DNA of 64,000 bases from Chiloscyllium plagiosum (GCF_004010195.1 NC_057717.1:106706566-106770565), one strand, 5' to 3'; positions 1-63,682 are shown, numbered from the stretch's first letter. Numbers and translations are program-made. Notes: generated by a model from the letters alone, not told the origin.

Positions 1-244
1 GTCTGACCTATCACCCTCACCTTGACCTCTTTCCACCTATCACATTTCCGATGCCCCTCCCCCAAGTCCCTCCTCCCTATCTTTTATCTTAGCCTGCTGG
101 ACCAACTTTCCTCATTCCTGAAGAAGGGCTAATGCCCGAAACGTCGATTCTCCTGTTCCCTAGATGCTGCCTGACCTGCTGCGGTTTTCCAGCAACACAT
201 TTCCATCTCTGATCTCCAGCATTTGCAGACCTCACTTTCTCCTC
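1..244 (+). mobile_element. Penelope-like element 3' terminus (pLTR/tail), family A
   Basis: Same sequence as the reverse-complemented 3' region (709-930) of the GIY-YIG/RT element below; carries the CTGAAGA..GAAACGTC motif and ends CTCACTTTCTCCTC. Confidence 0.8.
114..149 (+). ncRNA. Minimal type I hammerhead ribozyme motif
   Basis: CTGAAGA(118-124)-A-GGGC-TAAT-GCCC-GAAA(138-141)-C-GTC(143-145). Core and stem II are intact; stem I is short and imperfect. Confidence 0.7.
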
Positions 245-344: not shown

Positions 345-708
345 CCTGCCCTGATTTACCTTACCAAAATGTAACACCTCACATATATCTAAATTAAACT
401 CCATCTGCCACTCCTTGGCCCTCTAGCCCATCTGATCAAGATCCCGTTGTACGCTTGAGAACATTTCTTGACAGTACACTACGCCTTCAATTTTGGTGTC
501 ATCTGCAAACTTACCATACTTCTATGTTCATAACCAAATAATGTATATAAATAATGAAAAGCAGTGGATCTCGCACTGATCACTGTGGTACACTGCTGGT
601 CAAAGGCCTCCAGTCTGAAAATCAACTCTCTACCATCAGTCTCTCTCTATCTTTAAGCCAAATTTGTACCGTTTGCTAGTTCTCTCTGGATTGCATATGA
701 TCTAATCT
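345..708 (-). mobile_element. CR1-type LINE RT fragment (left part, interrupted by Penelope)
   Basis: Reverse complement contains AAGTTTGCAGATGACACCAAAATTG (KFADDTKI) and TGGCAGATGGAGTTTAAT (WQMEFN); continues at 2382-2630. Confidence 0.85.
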
Positions 709-2381
709 GAAAAATGTGTTGCTGGAAAAGCGCAGCAGGTCAGGCAGCATCCAAGGAGCAGGAGAATCGAAGTTTAGGGCATAAGCCCTTCTTCAGGAAT
801 GAGGAAGGTGTGCAAAGCAGGCTAAGATAAAAGGTAGGGAGGAGGGACTTGGGGAAGGGGCATTGGGAATGCGATAGGTGGAAGGAGGTCAAGGTGAGGG
901 TGATAGGCCGGAGAAGGGGTGGGGGCGGAGAGGTCAGGAAGAAGATTGCAGGTCAAGAAGGCAGTGCTGAGTCTGAGGGTTGGGACTGAGATAAGGTGGA
1001 GGGGAAGGGAAATGAGGAAGCTAGAGAAATCTGCATTCATCCCTTGTGGTTGGAGGGTTCCTAGGCGGAAGATGAGGCGCTCTTCCTCCAGGCGTCGTGT
1101 TGCCATGGTCTGGCGATGGAGGAGGCCAAGGACCTGCATGTTCTTGGTAGAGTGGGAGGGGGAGTTAAAGTGTTCCGCTACGGGGCGGTTGGGTTGGTTG
1201 GTGCCGGTGTCCCAGAGGTGTTCTTTGAAACATTCTGCAAGTAGGCAGCCTGTCTCCCCAATGTAGAGGAGGCCACTTCGGGTGCAGCGGATGCAGTAAA
1301 TGATGTGGTGGAGGTGCAGGTGAATTTGTGACGGATATGGAAGGAACCCTTGGGGCCTTGGAGGGAAGTGAGGGGGGAGGTGTGAGCGCATGTTTTGCAT
1401 TTCTTGCGGTTGCAGGGGAAGGTGCCGGNNNNNNNNNNNNNNNNNNNNNNNNNNNNNNNNNNNNNNNNNNNNNNNNNNNNNNNNNNNNNNNNNNNNNNNN
1501 NNNNNNNNNNNNNNNNNNNNNNNNNNNNNNNNNNNNNNNNNNNNNNNNNNNNNNNNNNNNNNNNNNNNNNNNNNNNNNNNNNNNNNNNNNNNNNNNNNNN
1601 NNNNNNNNNNNNNNNNNNNNNNNNNNNNNNNNNNNNNNNNNNNNNNNNNNNNNNNNNNNNNNNNNNNNNNNNNNNNNNNNNNNNNNNNNNNNNNNNNNNN
1701 NNNNNNNNNNNNNNNNNNNNNNNNNNNNNNNNNNNNNNNNNNNNNNNNNNNNNNNNNNNNNNNNNNNNNNNNNNNNNNNNNNNNNNNNNNNNNNNNNNNN
1801 NNNNNNNNNNNNNNNNNNNNNNNNNNNNNNNNNNNNNNNNNNNNNNNNNNNNNNNNNNNNNNNNNNNNNNNNNNNNNNNNNNNNNNNNNNNNNNNNNNNN
1901 NNNNNNNNNNNNNNNNNNNNNNNNNNNNNNNNNNNNNNNNNNNNNNNNNNNNNNNNNNNNNNNNNNNNNNNNNNNNNNNNNNNNNNNNNNNNNNNNNNNN
2001 NNNNNNNNNNNNNNNNNNNNNNNNNNNNNNNNNNNNNNNNNNNNNNNNNNNNNNNNNNNNNNNNNNNNNNNNNNNNNNNNNNNNNNNNNNNNNNNNNNNN
2101 NNNNNNNNNNNNNNNNNNNNNNNNNNNNNNNNNNNNNNNNNNNNNNNNNNTGGAGGTGTATAGGGACTGGATGTCCATGGTGAAGATAAGGCGTTGGGGG
2201 CCGGGGAAGTGAAAATCATGGAGGAGGTGGAGGGCGTGGGTGGTATCCCGAACGTAGGTGGGGAGTTCTTGGACTAAGGGGGACAGGAGCATGTCGAGGT
2301 ATGCAGAGATGAGTTCAGTGGGGCAGGAGCAGGCTGAAACAATGGGTCAGCCGGGGCAGTCAGGTTTGTGGATTTTGGGCA
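709..2381 (-). mobile_element. Penelope-like retroelement (RT + GIY-YIG endonuclease), partly in N-gap
   Basis: ORF pieces LPTYVRDTTHAL..IFTMDIQSLYTS (PLE RT) and IIYCIRCTRSGLLYIGETG..VAEHFN..EERLIFRLGTLQPQGMN (GIY-YIG). 10-bp TSD GATCTAATCT at 699-708 and 2382-2391. Confidence 0.9.
1429..2150. other. Assembly gap (N run)
   Basis: 722 N. Confidence 1.
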
Positions 2382-2630
2382 GATCTAATCTTACTAACCA
2401 GTGTACCATGTAGAACCTTGTCAAATGCCTTAATGAAGTCCATATAGACAATATCTATTATCCTGCCTTCAACTATCTTCTTTGTCACTTTTTCAAAAAA
2501 CTCAATCAAGTTAGTGAGTCCCAATTTCCATGCACAAAGCCATGCTGGCTATCCCTAATCAGTCCTTGCCTTTCCAAAAGCATGTAAAACCAGTTCCTCA
2601 GAATCCCCTCCAATAACATATCTACCACTG
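2382..2630 (-). mobile_element. CR1 LINE fragment (right part)
   Basis: Reverse complement encodes QHGFV..LTNLIEFF..YMDFIKAFDKV-like motifs. Confidence 0.85.
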
Positions 2631-4527: not shown

Positions 4528-4728
4528 ATAAAACAAAAAACTGGAAATCTGAAGCTAAAACAAAAATTGCTGGAGAAACTCAGCAGGTCTGGCAGTATCT
4601 GTAGAGAGAGAAACAGAGTTAATGTTTAGAGTCCACTGACCCTTCTGACTCGAAATGTTAACTCCGGTTTTATCTCCACTGATGCTGCCAGACCTGTTGA
4701 GTTTCTCCAGCAATTTCTGTTCTTGTTC
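4528..4728. repeat. Inverted-repeat (hairpin) element built from two Penelope-like termini, family D
   Basis: AATTGCTGGAGAAACTCAGCAGGTCTGGCAGTATC pairs with GATGCTGCCAGACCTGTTGAGTTTCTCCAGCAATT; centre contains GACTCGAAATGTTAAC. Confidence 0.75.
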
Positions 4729-6782: not shown

Positions 6783-6915
6783 CAGAAAAGAGAAATTGCT
6801 GGAGAAACTGAGCAGGTCTGGCAGCATTTGTGGATATAGGTCCAGTGACCCTTTTCAGAGCTCTTGAGTTTCTCTGGCAATTTCTGTTTTTGTTTCTGAT
6901 TTCTAGCATGCACAG
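6783..6915. repeat. Collapsed inverted-repeat element, family D
   Basis: GAAATTGCTGGAGAAACTGAG...TTGAGTTTCTCTGGCAATTTC arms. Confidence 0.65.
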
Positions 6916-16015: not shown

Positions 16016-16049
16016 GTGGTCAGGAAAATAATGAAGAGTCGAATGAGAC

Positions 16050-16145
16050 CTGATGACAAGTCATCATACTCAAAACGTTAATTCTGCTTTCTTCCAAAAG
16101 ATGCTGCCAGATCTGCTGAGTTTTGTTAGCAATGTCTGTGTTTGC
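16050..16145 (+). mobile_element. Penelope-like terminus, family D, decayed hammerhead
   Basis: CTGATGA-CAAGT-CATCAT-ACTC-AAAA-CGTTA followed by GATGCTGCCAGATCTGCTGAGT. Confidence 0.55.
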
Positions 16146-16422: not shown

Positions 16423-16625
16423 CATAAAAGCAGAAGCTACTGCAGAAACTAAGCAGCTCCAGCAGTATCTGTGGAGAGAGAAACAGTTAACATTTCGAGT
16501 CTAATGACTTCTTTGGCACAGTGGAGTTTCTTCTCTCTCCGTAGATACTGCCAGACCTGCTGAGTTTCTCCAGCACTTACTGGTTGTCATTATGATCTCT
16601 TGCATCTGCAGCACTTTCCTTTTAT
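16423..16625. repeat. Inverted-repeat element, family D
   Basis: CAGCAGTATCTGTGGAGAGAGAAAC pairs with TCTCTCTCCGTAGATACTGCCAG. Confidence 0.7.
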
Positions 16626-18040: not shown

Positions 18041-19365
18041 ATAGAACATAGAACAATACAGCACAGAACAGGCCCTTCAGCCCACGATGTTGTGCCGAAC
18101 ATTTGTCCTAGCTTAAGCACCCATCCATGTACCTATCCAATTGCCGCTTAAAGGTCACCAATGATTCTGACTCTGCCACTCCCACAGGCAGTGCATTCCA
18201 TGCCCCCACCACTCTCCGGGTAAAGAACCTACCCCTGACATCCCCCCTCCTATACCTTCCACCCTTCACCTTAAATTTATGTCCCCTTGTAACACTCTGT
18301 TGTACCCAGGGAAAAANNNNNNNNNNNNNNNNNNNNNNNNNNNNNNNNNNNNNNNNNNNNNNNNNNNNNNNNNNNNNNNNNNNNNNNNNNNNNNNNNNNN
18401 NNNNNNNNNNNNNNNNNNNNNNNNNNNNNNNNNNNNNNNNNNNNNNNNNNNNNNNNNNNNNNNNNNNNNNNNNNNNNNNNNNNNNNNNNNNNNNNNNNNN
18501 NNNNNNNNNNNNNNNNNNNNNNNNNNNNNNNNNNNNNNNNNNNNNNNNNNNNNNNNNNNNNNNNNNNNNNNNNNNNNNNNNNNNNNNNNNNNNNNNNNNN
18601 NNNNNNNNNNNNNNNNNNNNNNNNNNNNNNNNNNNNNNNNNNNNNNNNNNNNNNNNNNNNNNNNNNNNNNNNNNNNNNNNNNNNNNNNNNNNNNNNNNNN
18701 NNNNNNNNNNNNNNNNNNNNNNNNNNNNNNNNNNNNNNNNNNNNNNNNNNNNNNNNNNNNNNNNNNNNNNNNNNNNNNNNNNNNNNNNNNNNNNNNNNNN
18801 NNNNNNNNNNNNNNNNNNNNNNNNNNNNNNNNNNNNNNNNNNNNNNNNNNNNNNNNNNNNNNNNNNNNNNNNNNNNNNNNNNNNNNNNNNNNNNNNNNNN
18901 NNNNNNNNNNNNNNNNNNNNNNNNNNNNNNNNNNNNNNNNNNNNNNNNNNNNNNNNNNNNNNNNNNNNNNNNNNNNNNNNNNNNNNNNNNNNNNNNNNNN
19001 NNNNNNNNNNNNNNNNNNNNNNNNNNNNNNNNNNNNNNNNNNNNNNNNNNNNNNNNNNNNNNNNNNNNNNNNNNNNNNNNNNNNNNNNNNNNNNNNNNNN
19101 NNNNNNNNNNNNNACAACATTCGCCACTCTCCAGTCCCCTGGTACCACCCCCGCTAACAGTGAAGACGAAAAGATCATTGACAACGGTTCTGCAATTTCC
19201 TCTCTTGCTTCCCACATAATCCTAGGATATATCCCATCAGGCCCGGGGGACTTGTCTATCCTCAAGTTTTTCAAAATGCCCAACACATCTTTCTTCCTAA
19301 CAAGTATCTCCTCTAGCTTACCAGTCCGTTTCACACTCTCCTCTTCAACAATATGGTCGCTCTCA
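18041..19365 (-). mobile_element. Younger CR1 LINE copy spanning an N-gap
   Basis: KSPGPDGIYPRI..VPGDWRVANV and TRGHKFKV..FFTRRVVGAWNALP; (TTCTATG)n-type tail at 18041-18055. Confidence 0.92.
18317..19113. other. Assembly gap (N run)
   Basis: 797 N. Confidence 1.
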
Positions 19366-27929: not shown

Positions 27930-29955
27930 AGGAGAGGTTGAGTATGTTGGACCTGTACCTATTGGAGTTCTGAAGAATGAGAGGAGATCTTATTATGAGA
28001 GGAAAATACAAGGTTATTAGGGGGCTTGACAGGCTAAATGCAGAGAGGCTGTTTCACATTGTGAGAGAGTCTCGGATCAGAGGCCTTGATCTCAGAATAA
28101 GGGGTTGCCCAATTAAGACAGATGAAGATTGTTTTCAAAGGGTAGTGAATTTGTGGAATTCTTTACCATAAAGGGCTGTAGAGCAGGGTCATTAAGTATA
28201 GTCAAGGCTGAGATTCACAGAACTTTGTGGGAAGATAGGGAAGAGAATGCTGGGGCCCTTGCTGAGATATTTGTATCATCACAGTCATGGGTGATATGCC
28301 GGAACACTGGAGCTTGGCTAATGTGGTGCCACTATTTAAGAAAGGTGACCAGTCAGCTTGACATCAGTGGTGGGTAAGTTGTTGAGGAAATTCTGAAGAA
28401 CTGGATTTATATGCATTTGAAAAGGCAAGAACTGATAGCCAACATGGCTTTGTACATGGGAAACTGTGTCTCACTAACTTGATTGACTTTTTTGAAGAGA
28501 TGGCAAAGAAGATTGATGAAGAAAGAGTGGTTATATGGACTTTAGCAAAGTGCTCAACAAGGTTCCGTATATTAGACTGTTAGGAAGGTTAGCTCACATG
28601 GAATCCAAGGGGAGTTAGCCATTTGGATGCAAAATTCGTTTGAAGGTAGGAGACAGAGGTGGTGGTAGACAGTTGGTTTTTGGACTGGAGGGCTGTGACG
28701 AGCAGTGTGTCACAAGGATTGGTGCTGGGTCCACTGCTTTTAGTCATTTATATAAATGATTTGGATGTGAATAAAGGAGGTATGGTTAGTAAATTTGCAG
28801 ATTATACCAAAATTGGAGGTGCAGCGAACAACGAAGAGAGTTATCTCAGACATAATATGACCTTGATCAGATGGGCCAATGGGCTGAGGAGTGGCAGAGG
28901 GAGTTTAATTTAAATCAATGTGAGATGCTGCATTTTGGTAAGATAAATTTGGAAAGGACTTATACAGTTAATGGTAGGGCGCTGGGGAGTGTTGCTGAAC
29001 AAACAGACATAGGGATGTAGGTGCATTGTTCCTTGAAAGTGGAGTCGCAGATAGACAGGGTGCCGGAGAAAGCATTTGGCACGCTTGCCTTCATTGGTTA
29101 GTGCATTTTGTAAAGGAGTTGGAATGTCATGTTGTGGCTGTACAGGATGTTGTTGAGGCCACTTTTAGAGTATTGCATTCAATTCTGGCCTCCCTGCTAT
29201 GTGAAAGATGATATGAAACTTGAAAGGGTTCAGAAAAGATTTACAAGAATTGTTGCCGAGATTGGGGGTTTGAGCTATTGGGAGAGGCTGGATAGTCTGG
29301 GGCTTTTCTCCCTAGAGTTTTGGAGGCTGAGAGGTGACCTTATAGAGGTTTATAAAATCATGAGGGGCCTGGATAGGGTGAATAGACAAGGTATTTCCCT
29401 GGGTTGGAGGATTAGGGTGAGGGGGAAAGATTTAAAAGGGACCTAAGGGGTAACTTTGGGGGCTGAGAGGCTTGAATAGGTTGAATAGCTAAGGTCTTTT
29501 TCCACGGATAGGGTATCCAAAAATGAGAGGGCATAGTTTAAGGTGAGAGGGGAAAGACTTAAAAGAGACCCGAGGGACAACCTTTTCACTCAGAGGGTGG
29601 TGCATGTGTGGAATAAGCTGCCAGAGGAAGTGGTGGAGGCTGGTGCAATTACAACATTTAAAAGACATCTGGATGGGTACACGAATCGGAAGGGTTTAGA
29701 GAGATATGGGCCAAATGCTGGCAAAAGGGATTAGATCAGTTTAGGATACCTGGTTGGCAGGGATGAGCTGGACTTATGGATCTGTTCCCATGTTATATGA
29801 CAGACTTTTAATCAGCAAGGAAATCAAGGTTATGGGGAAAAGACAGGAAAATTGAGCTGAGGAGTATCAGATCAGCCACGATCTCATTGAATGGAGAGGA
29901 GTAGATTCGATGGACGAAATGGCTGACTTCTGCTCTTACATCTTATGTCTTAAGA
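27930..29955 (+). mobile_element. Nested CR1 LINEs (28219-29800 inserted into an older copy)
   Basis: Outer copy breaks at ..GAGATTCACAGA (28218) and resumes at CAGACTTTTAATC (29800); inner copy has KFADYTK and RPLLEYCIQFW. Confidence 0.85.
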
Positions 29956-35345: not shown

Positions 35346-35509
35346 AAACAAAAATTGCCATTTGTTCCATACCTGAAGGGAGAAATTCTGTTGGGTTATG
35401 TGCAAAGCACAGGGAGGGAGAATTGAATTGTATGTTTTCCAAAGACCCTGCACAGGCACAATAGGCTGAAGGTGTCACCCATTTTTCTACAATTCAATAT
35501 TTTCATAAA

Positions 35510-35635
35510 GGAGAAAGTGAGGTCTGCAGACGCTGGAGATCAAAGCTGAAACTTTATTGCTGGAACAGCACAGCAGGTCAGGCAGCATCTAGGGAACAGA
35601 AGATTCGACGTTTCGGGCACATGCCCTTCTTCAGG
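35510..35635 (-). mobile_element. 126-bp Penelope-derived retroposed unit with 14-bp TSD
   Basis: TSD AATATTTTCATAAA at 35496-35509 and 35636-35649; body homologous to 117-243. Confidence 0.88.
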
Positions 35636-35638
35636 AAT
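35603..35638 (-). ncRNA. Minimal hammerhead ribozyme motif (best-preserved copy)
   Basis: Minus strand: ATTC-CTGAAGA-A-GGGC-ATGT-GCCC-GAAA-C-GTC-GAAT; stem I ATTC/GAAT is perfectly paired. Confidence 0.78.
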
Positions 35639-36193
35639 ATTTTCATAAAACCTAGAGGTTGGAACAGGAATCTTAATCTAACAGATGACAAGAAAAGAGA
35701 GAAAAGGCAGGAAAATGGAGTTGAGGATTATCTGATCAGCCAAGCTCTCATTGAATAGAGGAGGAGCAGACTCGATGGGCCAAATGGCCAACTCCTGCTC
35801 CTATGTCTTATGGTCTTAATATCATCTTAGGACATACAGGTTATAACACATGGACACTAGTGTGTCATGGTTGATGCACTGGCAATATCTTGTACTTAAT
35901 TTCTGGCTCTTTGTGCTAATCCCTGTAAACAGGGCACTGAGTCCCAGGAACTACTACAGAGCCAGGGGCATGGCAATCAGCGAGGGAGTGATGATGCCAT
36001 TCTGACTGCTTCATAGAGATAGGGGGAGTGGGAAGGGAGGGAGTGAGATGACAGTCATGTAGACGAGGGCTGGATTGGAGGAAGAAAGGGAAGATGGAGG
36101 CTGTATTGTGGAGGGGTAAGGTTTAGATAATGGAAGAGTGGAGCAGGACATCTGGAATCAGTGTCAAATCCACTGGAAAAGACAGTGACAACC

Positions 36194-36322
36194 TAGGAGA
36201 AAATGAGGACTGCAGATGCTGGAGATCAGAGTCAAAAAGTGTGATGCTGGAAAAGTACTGCCAGTCAGGCGGCAGCTGAGGAGCAGGACAGTCGACGTTT
36301 CAAGCATAAGCCCTTCATCAGG
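36194..36322 (-). mobile_element. ~127-bp Penelope-derived retroposed unit with TSD
   Basis: Direct repeat AGTGACAAC at 36184-36192 and 36323-36331; minus strand begins CCTGATGAAGGGCTTATGCTTGAAACGTCGAC. Confidence 0.82.
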
Positions 36323-36419
36323 AGTGACAACTTGTCCAGCAGGTGAGAAAATATTGAAACTTCTTTCAAAAGGGAATAAAAGAAAGAATTTGCTCAACCA
36401 CAAGATAACCAAAGTGTGT

Positions 36420-36745
36420 TACAGTCAATGAAATCCTTGTGAAATGAAGTTGTCAAAAAATATCAGCAGCCATTTGCCCACAGCAAGCTCCCATAAGCAG
36501 TAATGTGATAATGACCAGATCATCTGTTTTTGTGGATAAGGGATAAAGTTTGGCTAGGAGCCTAGAGCGAACTCTAGTACCCCTTCTTTGAAATAATGTT
36601 GGAAAGGGCAGAAAGGGCTTCAGTTTAACATCTCATCCAGCACTCCTTGTGCACTGAGTATGTTAGGCCGCAGTAGATGCTCAATTCTCTGGAGTGGAAC
36701 CTGCCAAGCCAAAACCTCCTGAGTTCAGAGTCAATGCTGACACAC
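36420..36745 (-). mobile_element. Deu-domain SINE
   Basis: CACAGCAAGCTCCCA..AATGTGATAATGACCAGAT..GTTTAACATCTCATCC..CAGCACTCC. Confidence 0.7.
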
Positions 36746-45853: not shown

Positions 45854-46576
45854 ATAGTCTGCACCTACCTCATTGAACTGAATTGTTCCTATCTTGGGTC
45901 CATTTCCCCCCCCGGTCCAGTCCTTTTATGGAAATAAATTGTGACAGACTGGAGTGAGGATATTCTGAATGCACTAAGAGCCATTTGAAATAAAGTTAAA
46001 CAGATTACAATGTGATGTACCAATAATTACTGGTTACATGCCGAAATGTCCAGATGTTCTTGAATGCAGGAATGTCAGGGCACATTTGAAGTGATCAAAA
46101 AGGCAACAGGTCCTTCAGTAAAGAGAACAGTTCCATTGAAAACAAAGACAGGGAGATCATCACTGATTGCAACAAACAGTTGAAGAGACATATGCAACAC
46201 TACCTTGATTTGTAGTTTAGGGAGAATCGCCAGGGAAGCTCTAGGCACTATAGAAAGCCTACCTGTCATGGCTATATATTAAGTCCACGGTGGAGGAGCT
46301 CTTGGCAAGTGCAGGTCACCAACTCAGAGGTCCTGGGGATTGCTAATTCTATCAACAGAGATTCATTGCTAAGTAGCAATGCTTGTAGAGGCTCAGACAC
46401 ATTTATGACTACTGTTTACCCAAAGAGCTGCTGTACAATGAATTGGTCAATAAAGTCATGATGTCCTGGATGTCCATACCTCAGGACAAGAACACCTGCA
46501 AGCTATAAGCCATAGACTAAGAGAAAGTCCTGACAGCTGTGACCTCTGGAGGCTCTCTGTTTGGAAGGGCATTGAA

Positions 46577-46713
46577 AGAGTTGAAAAGTGTGGCACTGGA
46601 AAAGCACAGCAGGTCAGGCAGCATCCGAGAAGCAAGAGAGTTGACATTTTGGGCATAAGCCCTTCATCAGGATTACTCTGACTCTCCAGCATCTGCAGTC
46701 CTCACTTTCTCTC
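46577..46713. mobile_element. Internally inverted short Penelope-derived unit (family A)
   Basis: Minus segment ends at the hammerhead core (..CCCTTCATCAGG, 46672), then a plus-strand tail CTCCAGCATCTGCAGTCCTCACTTTCTC. Confidence 0.75.
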
Positions 46714-46950
46714 AGGACATTGAGAGAGGCAAGTCAAGACAAAAATCTCAGCTGGAGAAGAGAGTCTAGCAAAAAGCAGAGAACAGAGAATTGTGTATCT
46801 TCTCAGATCATATTTGTGCAGCCAATGAGACAGAAACTACCTGTCCAGAATAGGGCTCCAAAGCCACACCAAGTGATGCTTCATTCAGAACCACCAGTCT
46901 CTCCTTACTGATTTGACTTCTCTAAAGCTCTCTGTCCTCAACATCTCCCT

Positions 46951-63034: not shown

Positions 63035-63682
63035 CGGGATTGATGAACAGCTGGCGTTTTGGGCAGAAACTCTTTTTATCAAGAATGTGGCGGGGGGAGG
63101 GAGCTGAGACATAAATAGGGGAGTGGGGTGGAACTGTGGGGCATGGGGTGGGGGGGGAGAAGGTAGGTGGGAAAGCAATAAGTGAATACAGGTGGGAGGT
63201 AATTGTGATAGGGTGGTGGGGAGAGTGGAGCAGAGACTCCTCCACTGCCAAATCAAAGCCATCCACCAACTGAAGGAAGATTGCCTCATCTTCTGCCTCA
63301 GGACCCTACAACCACATAGCATCAACATCGACTTCATCAGTTTCCACACCTCGACTCCCCTCACGTCATCTCAGATCCAACCTGACAAACTGTCCATATT
63401 TTTTCCCACCTATCCACTCCATCCTCCCCACTGACCTATCACAATTATCTCCTGACTGCATCTACCTATCACCTTCCCAGCTACCTTCACCCCAGCCTCA
63501 TCCTTAATCTACCCCCCCCCCCCCTTATCTCTCAGGCCCCCTCTCTCTCCACATTCCTGATGAAGAGCTTATGTCTGAAACATTGACTCTTCTGCTCCTT
63601 ACATGCTGCCTGACCTGCTGTGATTTTCCAGCAGTACACTTTTTGACTGATTCTTCAGCATCTGCGGTCCTCACATTCTCTT
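63035..63682 (+). mobile_element. Penelope-like 3' fragment (family A) with inverted 5' segment
   Basis: EDCLIFCLRTLQPHSINIDF (GIY-YIG C-term); terminus CCTGATGAAGAGCTTATGTCTGAAACATTGAC at ~63556-63587; 63035-63230 is an inverted copy of the terminus region. Confidence 0.82.

Follow-up and report, generated by a model that had tools for sequence, protein, structure and literature searches.

Short hammerhead-bearing units of a shark-type genome are 5′-truncated tail-end copies of a Penelope-like element with a preferred 5′ boundary at the hammerhead edge

Self-cleavage by the hammerhead ribozymes of Penelope-like elements (PLEs) is weak in vitro. The minimal hammerheads of metazoan PLEs occur in thousands of copies, mostly single or as opposite-strand pairs 100–700 bp apart, and the dispersed copies have been ascribed to truncated PLEs (Cervera & de la Peña 2014, PMC4209133). 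PLE reverse transcriptase (RT) initiates at two adjacent internal sites, and PLE copies carry an optional tail of 30–40 bp at either end, often lack their 5′ part, may adjoin inverted, 5′-truncated copies and have pseudo-LTRs that stem from partial tandems (Frangieh et al. 2024, PMC11167929; available portion of Craig et al. 2021, PMC8557442). That portion of PMC8557442 also reports that the pseudo-LTRs (pLTRs) of PLEs hold the transcription start site. In a reconstituted lizard PLE system, hammerhead cleavage was dispensable for insertion; the length of the product in vitro followed the 5′ end of the RNA, and hammerhead mutants changed nothing (PMC11167929). Non-LTR retrozymes are described, in the accessible part of PMC7229834, as head-to-tail tandem repeats of about 170–400 bp with canonical type I hammerheads and circular RNAs; the accessible part of a recent preprint gives repeats of 51–972 bp (Li, Clavereau & Pollet 2026).

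We analysed a stretch of 64,000 nucleotides (the window) in which a first-pass annotation had singled out three short hammerhead-bearing copies. The units of about 126–129 bp are the 3′-terminal module, from the hammerhead to the RT start sites, of a PLE that combines an RT with a C-terminal GIY-YIG domain. Rather than forming a new class of element, they are 5′-truncated copies of the tail end of a shark-type PLE that is very abundant. A blastn search of the window with the three named copies returned further copies at 114–242 (−), 699–800 (+), 63553–63680 (−) and 16529–16618 (−), together with weaker pieces. The first three of these, which the first-pass annotation had overlooked, pass ..CTTCAGGA and cross the boundary into shared upstream sequence of a longer element. 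One of them, c4 (1–242, plus strand), is a long form in which 116 nt of 3′ UTR lead into the hammerhead (CCTGA at 117), followed by the tail, and it serves as the coordinate reference q1–242. Another, c6 (63553–63680, minus strand), is a divergent long form that runs upstream past CATT/CCTGA, where the slash marks the boundary. The remaining one, c5 (699–2346, minus strand), is a 5′-truncated PLE that comprises an RT fragment (2151–2346), a masked stretch (1429–2150), a Cx4Cx2C linker with the GIY-YIG end (about 830–1428) and a hammerhead with a tail-less unit (699–801), the 3′ UTR lying between the unit and the GIY-YIG end.

Reached via this 3′ UTR, the minus-strand frame of c5 reads ..IIYCIRCTRSGLLYIGET.. 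(..LLYIGET..) with a C-x4-C-x2-C stretch, and beyond the masked 1429–2150 it reads ..RPIVSACSCPTELISAYLD.., the RT fragment. It thus has the single-ORF order of RT then GIY-YIG that marks endonuclease-positive PLEs, with the RT core masked as N. Between RT and endonuclease, GTFPCNRKKCKTC matches the CX2-5CxxC linker of the Neptune/Nematis type as that motif is defined in the available portion of PMC8557442, a likeness of motif and not of phylogeny. The Pfam GIY-YIG match in c5 was weak and below the cut-off (E = 0.014, 16.1 bits against 22.6). A first look at the genome (3.56 Gb) gave 19,352 candidates for the RT fragment. For the N-terminal piece there were 697 relatives at E ≤ 1e-10; among the 120 listed, RVT_1 was present in most and GIY-YIG in 19, and the best named relatives, at 85% identity, came from bamboo shark, whereas Pfam gave no match on N-terminal pieces alone. 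Because the c5 frame and its relatives show an RT with a C-terminal GIY-YIG domain, the sense strand of copies 1–3 is the minus strand of the window; from the PLE architecture it follows that ..TTTCTCC is the 3′ end of the element and CCTGA a 5′ end. The proposal that the units carry a Penelope-type minimal hammerhead is supported, but the suggestion of a discrete non-autonomous unit is not: they are the 3′ module of an autonomous PLE in the same window (c5, 699–2346), with the tails, inverted copies and variable target-site duplications familiar from PLEs.

Further features agree with PLE insertion: an optional tail, inverted partners, scattered truncation and, at locus L026 of a related family, an upstream partial copy. 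The order at L026 is GIY-YIG end, 3′ UTR, hammerhead, GGATGCT.. and N-terminal ORF region, which places the hammerhead directly ahead of the ORF, as in the lizard element. In the family of the units itself, we found no copy in which a unit is followed by an ORF start, and no ORF continued behind the tail, all 35 tails examined leading into unrelated DNA. A defined 5′ end of a full-length element was reached in none of the 14 N-terminal loci. Coding from the ATG in GGATGCTGCC is at most putative: the frame is open to the tail end, but there is a one-base shift between subfamilies. Runs of N coincide with the PLE RT core at 1429–2150 and 18317–19113 of the window and in most of loci L021–L047, and they appear to be masked rather than assembly gaps.

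Copy 1 (35510–35635/35638, minus strand) spans 126–129 nt from the minimal hammerhead, with its 5′ end at (ATT)CCTGA, to the tail end ..CACTTTCTCC, and its minus-strand sequence over 35510–35638 is ATTCCTGAAGAAGGGCATGTGCCCGAAACGTCGAAT...CACTTTCTCC. It is a clean insertion. As had been claimed, it is flanked by a 14-bp target-site duplication (TSD), with perfect repeats AATATTTTCATAAA at 35496–35509 and 35636–35649. Whether the first 3 nt of the right-hand repeat (AAT, which reads ATT in sense orientation) belong to the target or to the element is ambiguous; because longer copies show ..CATT/CCTGA, we assign these bases beside CCTGA to both, in keeping with the earlier observation that AAT is common to stem I of the hammerhead and the TSD.

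The minimal hammerhead of copy 1 (35603–35638, minus strand) reads, by eye, AUUC / CUGAAGA / A / GGGC-loop-GCCC / GAAA / C-GUC / GAAU. It has a helix I of 4 bp (AUUC/GAAU), a bulged A before helix II (GGGC..GCCC), the boxes CUGAAGA and GAAA, an ACGU palindrome without loop 3, and a GUC site with a predicted cut between 35607 and 35606. The features of a minimal hammerhead (boxes, NUH site, G10.1–C11.1, 9/10.1 nucleotide and palindromic 15.2–16.2) could be read directly in copies 1–3 and in 30 further arms. Similar to the pseudo-LTR hammerheads of PLEs (PMC4209133), the motif combines CUGANGA and GAAA boxes, a G10.1–C11.1 pair and a short helix I with a bulged base before helix II, a palindromic ACGU and no loop 3. 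By contrast, Rfam models did not recognize it: no family, hammerheads included, reached the gathering score in the whole 64-kb window, and no ribozyme family, hammerhead models included, matched at E ≤ 10 in 35400–36450. The earlier description of a complete minimal hammerhead at 35603–35638 is confirmed by eye. When folded as a monomer, helix II alone was predicted to be stable, with unremarkable z-scores of −1.1 to +0.4. This folding result fits a dimer-type motif, for which self-cleavage activity is at most predicted. Folding also predicted an 8-bp helix between AGAUGCUG, in a conserved box, and CAGCAUCU, in the tail, at 114–242 of the window (q160–167 with q217–224) and likewise at 35510–35638. 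This helix was present in the minimum-free-energy structure of both folded units and encloses the RT start site of the tail-less class, in an AC-rich stretch (..CAACACAUUUUCAG).

Copy 2 (36196–36357, minus strand, 5′ end approximate) consists of the module and about 34 nt of upstream 3′ UTR, and it is older, with 77–80% identity to other copies. Its alignment to a longer copy runs 34 nt past CCTGA, to about 36357; measured against shuffles, this upstream stretch reached z = 4.3, and none of the 29 truly truncated arms exceeded z = 2.5. The 9-mer AGTGACAAC does occur twice, at 36184–36192 and 36322–36330, as had been noted. However, because the homology of copy 2 goes on past CCTGA, the right-hand 9-mer lies within element-derived sequence, and a 9-bp TSD is doubtful. 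The proposal of two separate mini-retroposons with common ends fails, since copy 2 runs on past the boundary. An older element copy beneath copy 2 was also considered and rejected, the likeness of its left flank to the unit scoring 14 against a shuffle mean of 13.7.

Copy 3 was said to break at the same core position; it does, with the refinement that an inverted tail adjoins there. Its main part (46581–46674, minus strand) is a tail-less unit with the 3′ end ..CACACTTTTCAA that ends at TCCTGA. Joined to the 5′ end of the unit is an inverted tail piece (..CTCCAGCATCTGCAGTCCTCACTTTCTC) of 37–45 nt followed by TCAGGA (46675–46717, plus strand), and the whole is flanked by repeats CATTGA[A/G]AGAG, identical at 10 of 11 positions, at 46570–46580 and 46718–46728. 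The hexamer TCAGGA, which is antisense to the unit start TCCTGA, is present twice (46669–46674 and 46712–46717), the second time after the inverted tail and directly before the TSD. A similar unit with an inverted tail and a TSD of 15 bp was found at 102535 of the neighbouring DNA, and at locus L035 an inverted tail adjoins a truncation within the ORF.

The first-pass annotation had proposed that the 5′ boundary is fixed. We mapped c4 (q1–242, CCTGA at q117) onto a 264-kb sample, consisting of the window and 200 kb to its left, and obtained 55 matches, 39 of which had at least 75% identity and reached at least q190. Start points fell at q110–129 in 23 of these 39 (17 at q110–119), at q1–9 in four and at q146–169, downstream of the GUC cut, in another four. 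Twenty-nine of the 35 arms covering the hammerhead had no upstream homology to the 3′ UTR; the six that had it include the reference c4 itself and, as the weakest, copy 2. Genome-wide, we counted exact patterns and expressed them as a share of the core 30-mer CCTGAWGAAGGGCTTATGCCCGAAACGTCG, which occurs 29,998 times (100%). The core extended by 5 nt inside the element occurs 28,117 times (94%). On the other side, ATT plus core occurs 19,029 times (63%), CTCATT plus core, with the 3′ side 1 nt shorter, 10,569 times (35%), and the nine upstream nucleotides TTCCTCATT plus core, with the 3′ side 4 nt shorter, 9,076 times (30%); a base other than A followed by TT and core occurs 5,511 times. Since 94% is kept inside the element, compared with 35% and 30% upstream, the loss is confined to the six bases before CCTGA. 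Within this zone of about 5–6 nt the ends are ragged, with roughly equal shares, by subtraction, at −4/−5, −3, −2 and −1/0. By contrast, 5′ truncations in the N-terminal region of the ORF are scattered from −9 to 164 nt over 14 loci.

The common boundary is far beyond chance. Plotted 5′ ends are not random but cluster at the 5′ edge of the hammerhead, both in the 264-kb sample and in the exact counts, where about two thirds of some 30,000 exact-core copies begin there, and the proposal of a fixed boundary is upheld. These data show that the first-strand cDNA of about two thirds of the copies ends at the 5′ edge of helix I, (C)ATT/CCTGA. Two units 3.7 kb apart, L054 and L055 (G000:C1:3888185-3888235 and 3891869-3891919), have near-identical upstream flanks of 40 nt, the result of a local duplication or, alternatively, of insertions that recurred at one site of another repeat.

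How the two ends of a copy came about can be read from the junctions. There are two 3′-end classes, ..CACATTTTCAG(CT) and ..CTCACTTTCTCC, that lie 32–36 nt apart, the extra stretch being the optional tail. Reverse transcription thus begins at either of two fixed sites, directly after one or the other of these ends, and proceeds 5′-ward through the minimal hammerhead. The cDNA end is then joined to the target, to an inverted tail piece or to a second inverted cDNA, and this last joining gives head-to-head pairs. Joints to the target show 0–3 nt of microhomology, and TSDs of plain insertions measure 4–15 bp, often reaching 2–3 nt into the AT/ATT of the element. The 264-kb sample holds six full head-to-head pairs; in addition, there is a short inverted repeat at 28830 and an inverted junction, offset, at 74758. 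Among the first 100 33-mer matches listed genome-wide, 14 belonged to head-to-head pairs. The pairs are centred on the boundary, with one arm usually starting from (ATT)CCTGA and the other from a variable point in the first ~20 nt. At one locus, ..GCTGTGCT/CATT/CCTG forms a template-jump junction. The clustering at the boundary and these types of junction together indicate that the 3′ end of first-strand cDNA is very often free at the hammerhead's 5′ edge. True head-to-tail arrays were absent from the 55 matches in 264 kb, in which a single adjacency joined two unrelated copies (identities 89% and 66%). Directly after ..CTTTCTCC, 22 of 35 tail ends have a T, in many cases within TC or TA, and this bias hints at a preferred nick site on the bottom strand. 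At L030:480-765, a 5′-truncated tail copy of 70 nt (587–656) stands between two copies of a stretch of about 107 bp, which would be an unusually long TSD.

The explanation that we favour for the boundary, at a little under an even chance, is run-off: synthesis of the first strand would reach a discrete 5′ end of the RNA at the 5′ edge of the hammerhead, and the cDNA would end there because its template does. PLE transcripts would start at this edge, (C)AUUCCUGA, driven from the upstream 3′ UTR/pLTR, and would carry one RT-entry module 95–129 nt from the 5′ end and another at the 3′ end. Initiation at the 5′-proximal module would give run-off mini-insertions, and initiation at the distal module randomly 5′-truncated copies that bear the ORF; the hammerhead would act as the 5′ leader of the transcript, and its cleavage would be needed for neither kind of insertion. 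We favour an RNA 5′ end because the lizard product followed the 5′ end of its RNA while hammerhead mutants were without effect, a result that argues against an intrinsic stop (PMC11167929), because PLE pLTRs are reported to contain a start site, and because L026 places the hammerhead directly ahead of the ORF. The head-to-head pairs centred on the boundary and the template-jump junction support a free cDNA end at this point, and the two 3′-end classes and the inverted tails agree with the internal-initiation model of PMC11167929. Against run-off, ends that are ragged over ~5 nt make a pattern that would suit a stall as well.

RNA reads from a single-cell polyA run (X20) were about 12.6-fold deeper in the unit than directly upstream, and a run of unknown type that we took as DNA (X15) fell 11.6-fold over the same bins; RNA depth thus tracks copy number. 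No pile-up of read starts at the boundary was reported in X20, in which both strands were read. A G is enriched before ATTCCTGA (3,098 genome-wide, compared with 2,122 for A/T); TTCCTGA is preceded by G at only 14 among the first 100 sites listed. The first 20 G sites comprise ten with plain flanks, ten that abut an inverted arm and no long-form variants. Nine of the ten plain sites were read whole, the tenth being left out because its flank duplicated that of another. A cap-derived G was considered and rejected: the G lies inside the TSD in eight of the nine, which means that it comes from the target (sites G^AT(T)) and is no cap signature. The long-form variant ..AAAGATT, present in 1 of 12 long copies, was likewise rejected as a source of the G, accounting for none of the 20 sampled sites. 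An Inr-like TCATTCC and a TTTTAT at −32 to −27 were read by eye alone.

A broader reading, which we put forward tentatively and regard as somewhat doubtful, is that the minimal hammerhead, as the 5′ end of the transcript, makes up with the RT-entry site ~95–129 nt downstream a self-contained retrotransposition cassette, and that most PLE insertions here are run-off copies. If this were true, there would be on the order of 20,000 run-off insertions for the youngest subfamily alone, and the hammerhead would have a 5′-terminal role in structure or RNP assembly rather than in cutting.

The chief alternative to an RNA 5′ end, a serious one though rather less likely, is that the RNA continues upstream and the PLE RT in most cases stops or comes off on reaching the hammerhead's 5′ edge. 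Such a stop could be caused by a bound protein of the element or by two RNAs dimerised via the hammerhead, through the ACGU palindrome and a self-complementary helix II. Ends that are ragged over 5–6 nt would suit a stop, about 30–35% of copies read through, and the second arms of head-to-head pairs start variably in the first ~20 nt, inside helix II, which agrees with two cDNAs that come together where the hammerhead is paired. In addition, the lizard PLE protein is a predicted dimer that extends both target strands and binds RNA from the hammerhead to the RT start (PMC11167929). However, the stop would come after the whole structure has been copied and not before it, and helix II alone is predicted to be stable in the monomer. 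In the lizard experiments, product size followed the RNA 5′ end with templates extending 126–145 nt upstream of the ORF start, and no stop at the hammerhead was reported (PMC11167929).

Another alternative, improbable compared with an RNA 5′ end but still serious, is that the units form a separate non-autonomous lineage, that is, a self-propagating, SINE-like unit of 95–129 nt with its own internal promoter that the PLE enzyme mobilises in trans and that is no by-product of PLE transcripts. Some subfamilies occurred in the sample as short units alone: the AATAAAGTTTCA type was a short unit in all three cases (c1, 7481 and L030 587–656), and the TTTT-loop type was without upstream homology at all five of its loci. 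The ratio of units to long forms is about 2:1 genome-wide and 29:6 in 264 kb, and an internal promoter is reported for D. virilis Penelope in the available portion of PMC8557442. Nevertheless, in the youngest subfamily long copies linked to the ORF stand beside short ones that have the same diagnostic bases, and in so small a sample the autonomous partners of old subfamilies may be unsampled. RNA depth follows copy number on both strands, and a TTTT run within the unit speaks against Pol III.

Although every sequence feature of a PLE minimal hammerhead is present, it is very improbable that the ribozyme itself makes the boundary by cutting, with units spreading retrozyme-style via cleaved or circular RNAs, because a cut at GUC would put the ends 29–32 nt further in, where ends are rare (4 of 39 matches start at q146–169, directly downstream of the cut). 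Moreover, true head-to-tail arrays are lacking, each of the 35 tails leads into unrelated DNA, a search of 35400–36450 at E ≤ 10 gave no other ribozyme family, and reads that end at the cleavage site were not seen in the lizard study (PMC11167929). The earlier argument that the boundary lies upstream of GUC, by the 29–32 nt that we measured, and is not explained by simple self-cleavage was therefore correct.

As in animal non-LTR retrozymes, going by the accessible parts of PMC7229834 and the 2026 preprint, the units are short non-coding sequences with a hammerhead, related to PLE pLTRs, and occur as dispersed monomers. Unlike the retrozymes described there, they measure 95–129 bp, carry a minimal motif and were never in tandem in the 264-kb sample. 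The idea of a retrozyme-like unit is thus not sustained: the 55 matches include neither true arrays nor tails, among the 35, that lead anywhere but into unrelated DNA, and the hammerhead is a dimer-type motif and not a canonical type I with helix III/loop 3. In the RNA reads of run X20, a weak test, no joints going back on the unit were reported.

Published work already describes the hammerheads of PLEs, their dispersed copies that are truncated, the tails and the inverted partners, and the units are minimal-hammerhead PLE remnants. They resemble the dispersed copies of PMC4209133 in copy number and in their single or opposite-strand arrangement. They also share the insertion signatures of PLEs, with two 3′-end classes 32–36 nt apart, head-to-head pairs, cleavage apparently unneeded, inverted tail pieces on the 5′ side (here at c3, 102535 and L035) and a hammerhead ~95–129 nt upstream of the RT start sites, directly ahead of the ORF start (L026). 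The difference lies in the 5′ ends. Truncation at the 5′ side is general in PMC11167929 and the available portion of PMC8557442, whereas the 5′ ends of the units favour the hammerhead edge, a preference that the main text of the former and that portion of the latter do not mention. Nor does the main text of PMC4209133 state or quantify truncated copies that begin at this edge, a start found for ~two thirds of the ~30,000 copies with an exact core in the present shark-type genome. Our literature searches on Penelope elements with hammerheads returned nothing on a preference of 5′ boundary. The quantified preference is thus without counterpart in these sources.

Tens of thousands of insertions that end at the 5′ edge of a ribozyme, and not at its cleavage site, offer a handle on the role of PLE hammerheads. 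The boundary marks where the template or the enzyme stops, and it recasts the question of that role as one of transcript 5′ end versus roadblock. For annotation, the units and their head-to-head pairs belong under PLE remnants and not under SINEs, MITEs or retrozymes.

Other repeats accompany these copies. Fragments of a LINE-type RT (..DIVYMDFIKAFDKV..), another abundant repeat of the genome, have received PLE insertions at 2360–2548 (minus strand) of the window, at L030:681-1016 and in the flank at 177399 of the neighbouring DNA. Further repeat families, more divergent, have the GCAGGTCAGGCAGCATC box in common and are present at 4536–4714, 6795–6827, 16049–16124 and 16529–16618 of the window and at 97138, 126513, 193346 and 204536 of the neighbouring DNA. 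In these families a GTTAAC palindrome comes after CUGA.GA..GAAA motifs, and they are probably further families of PLE minimal hammerheads.
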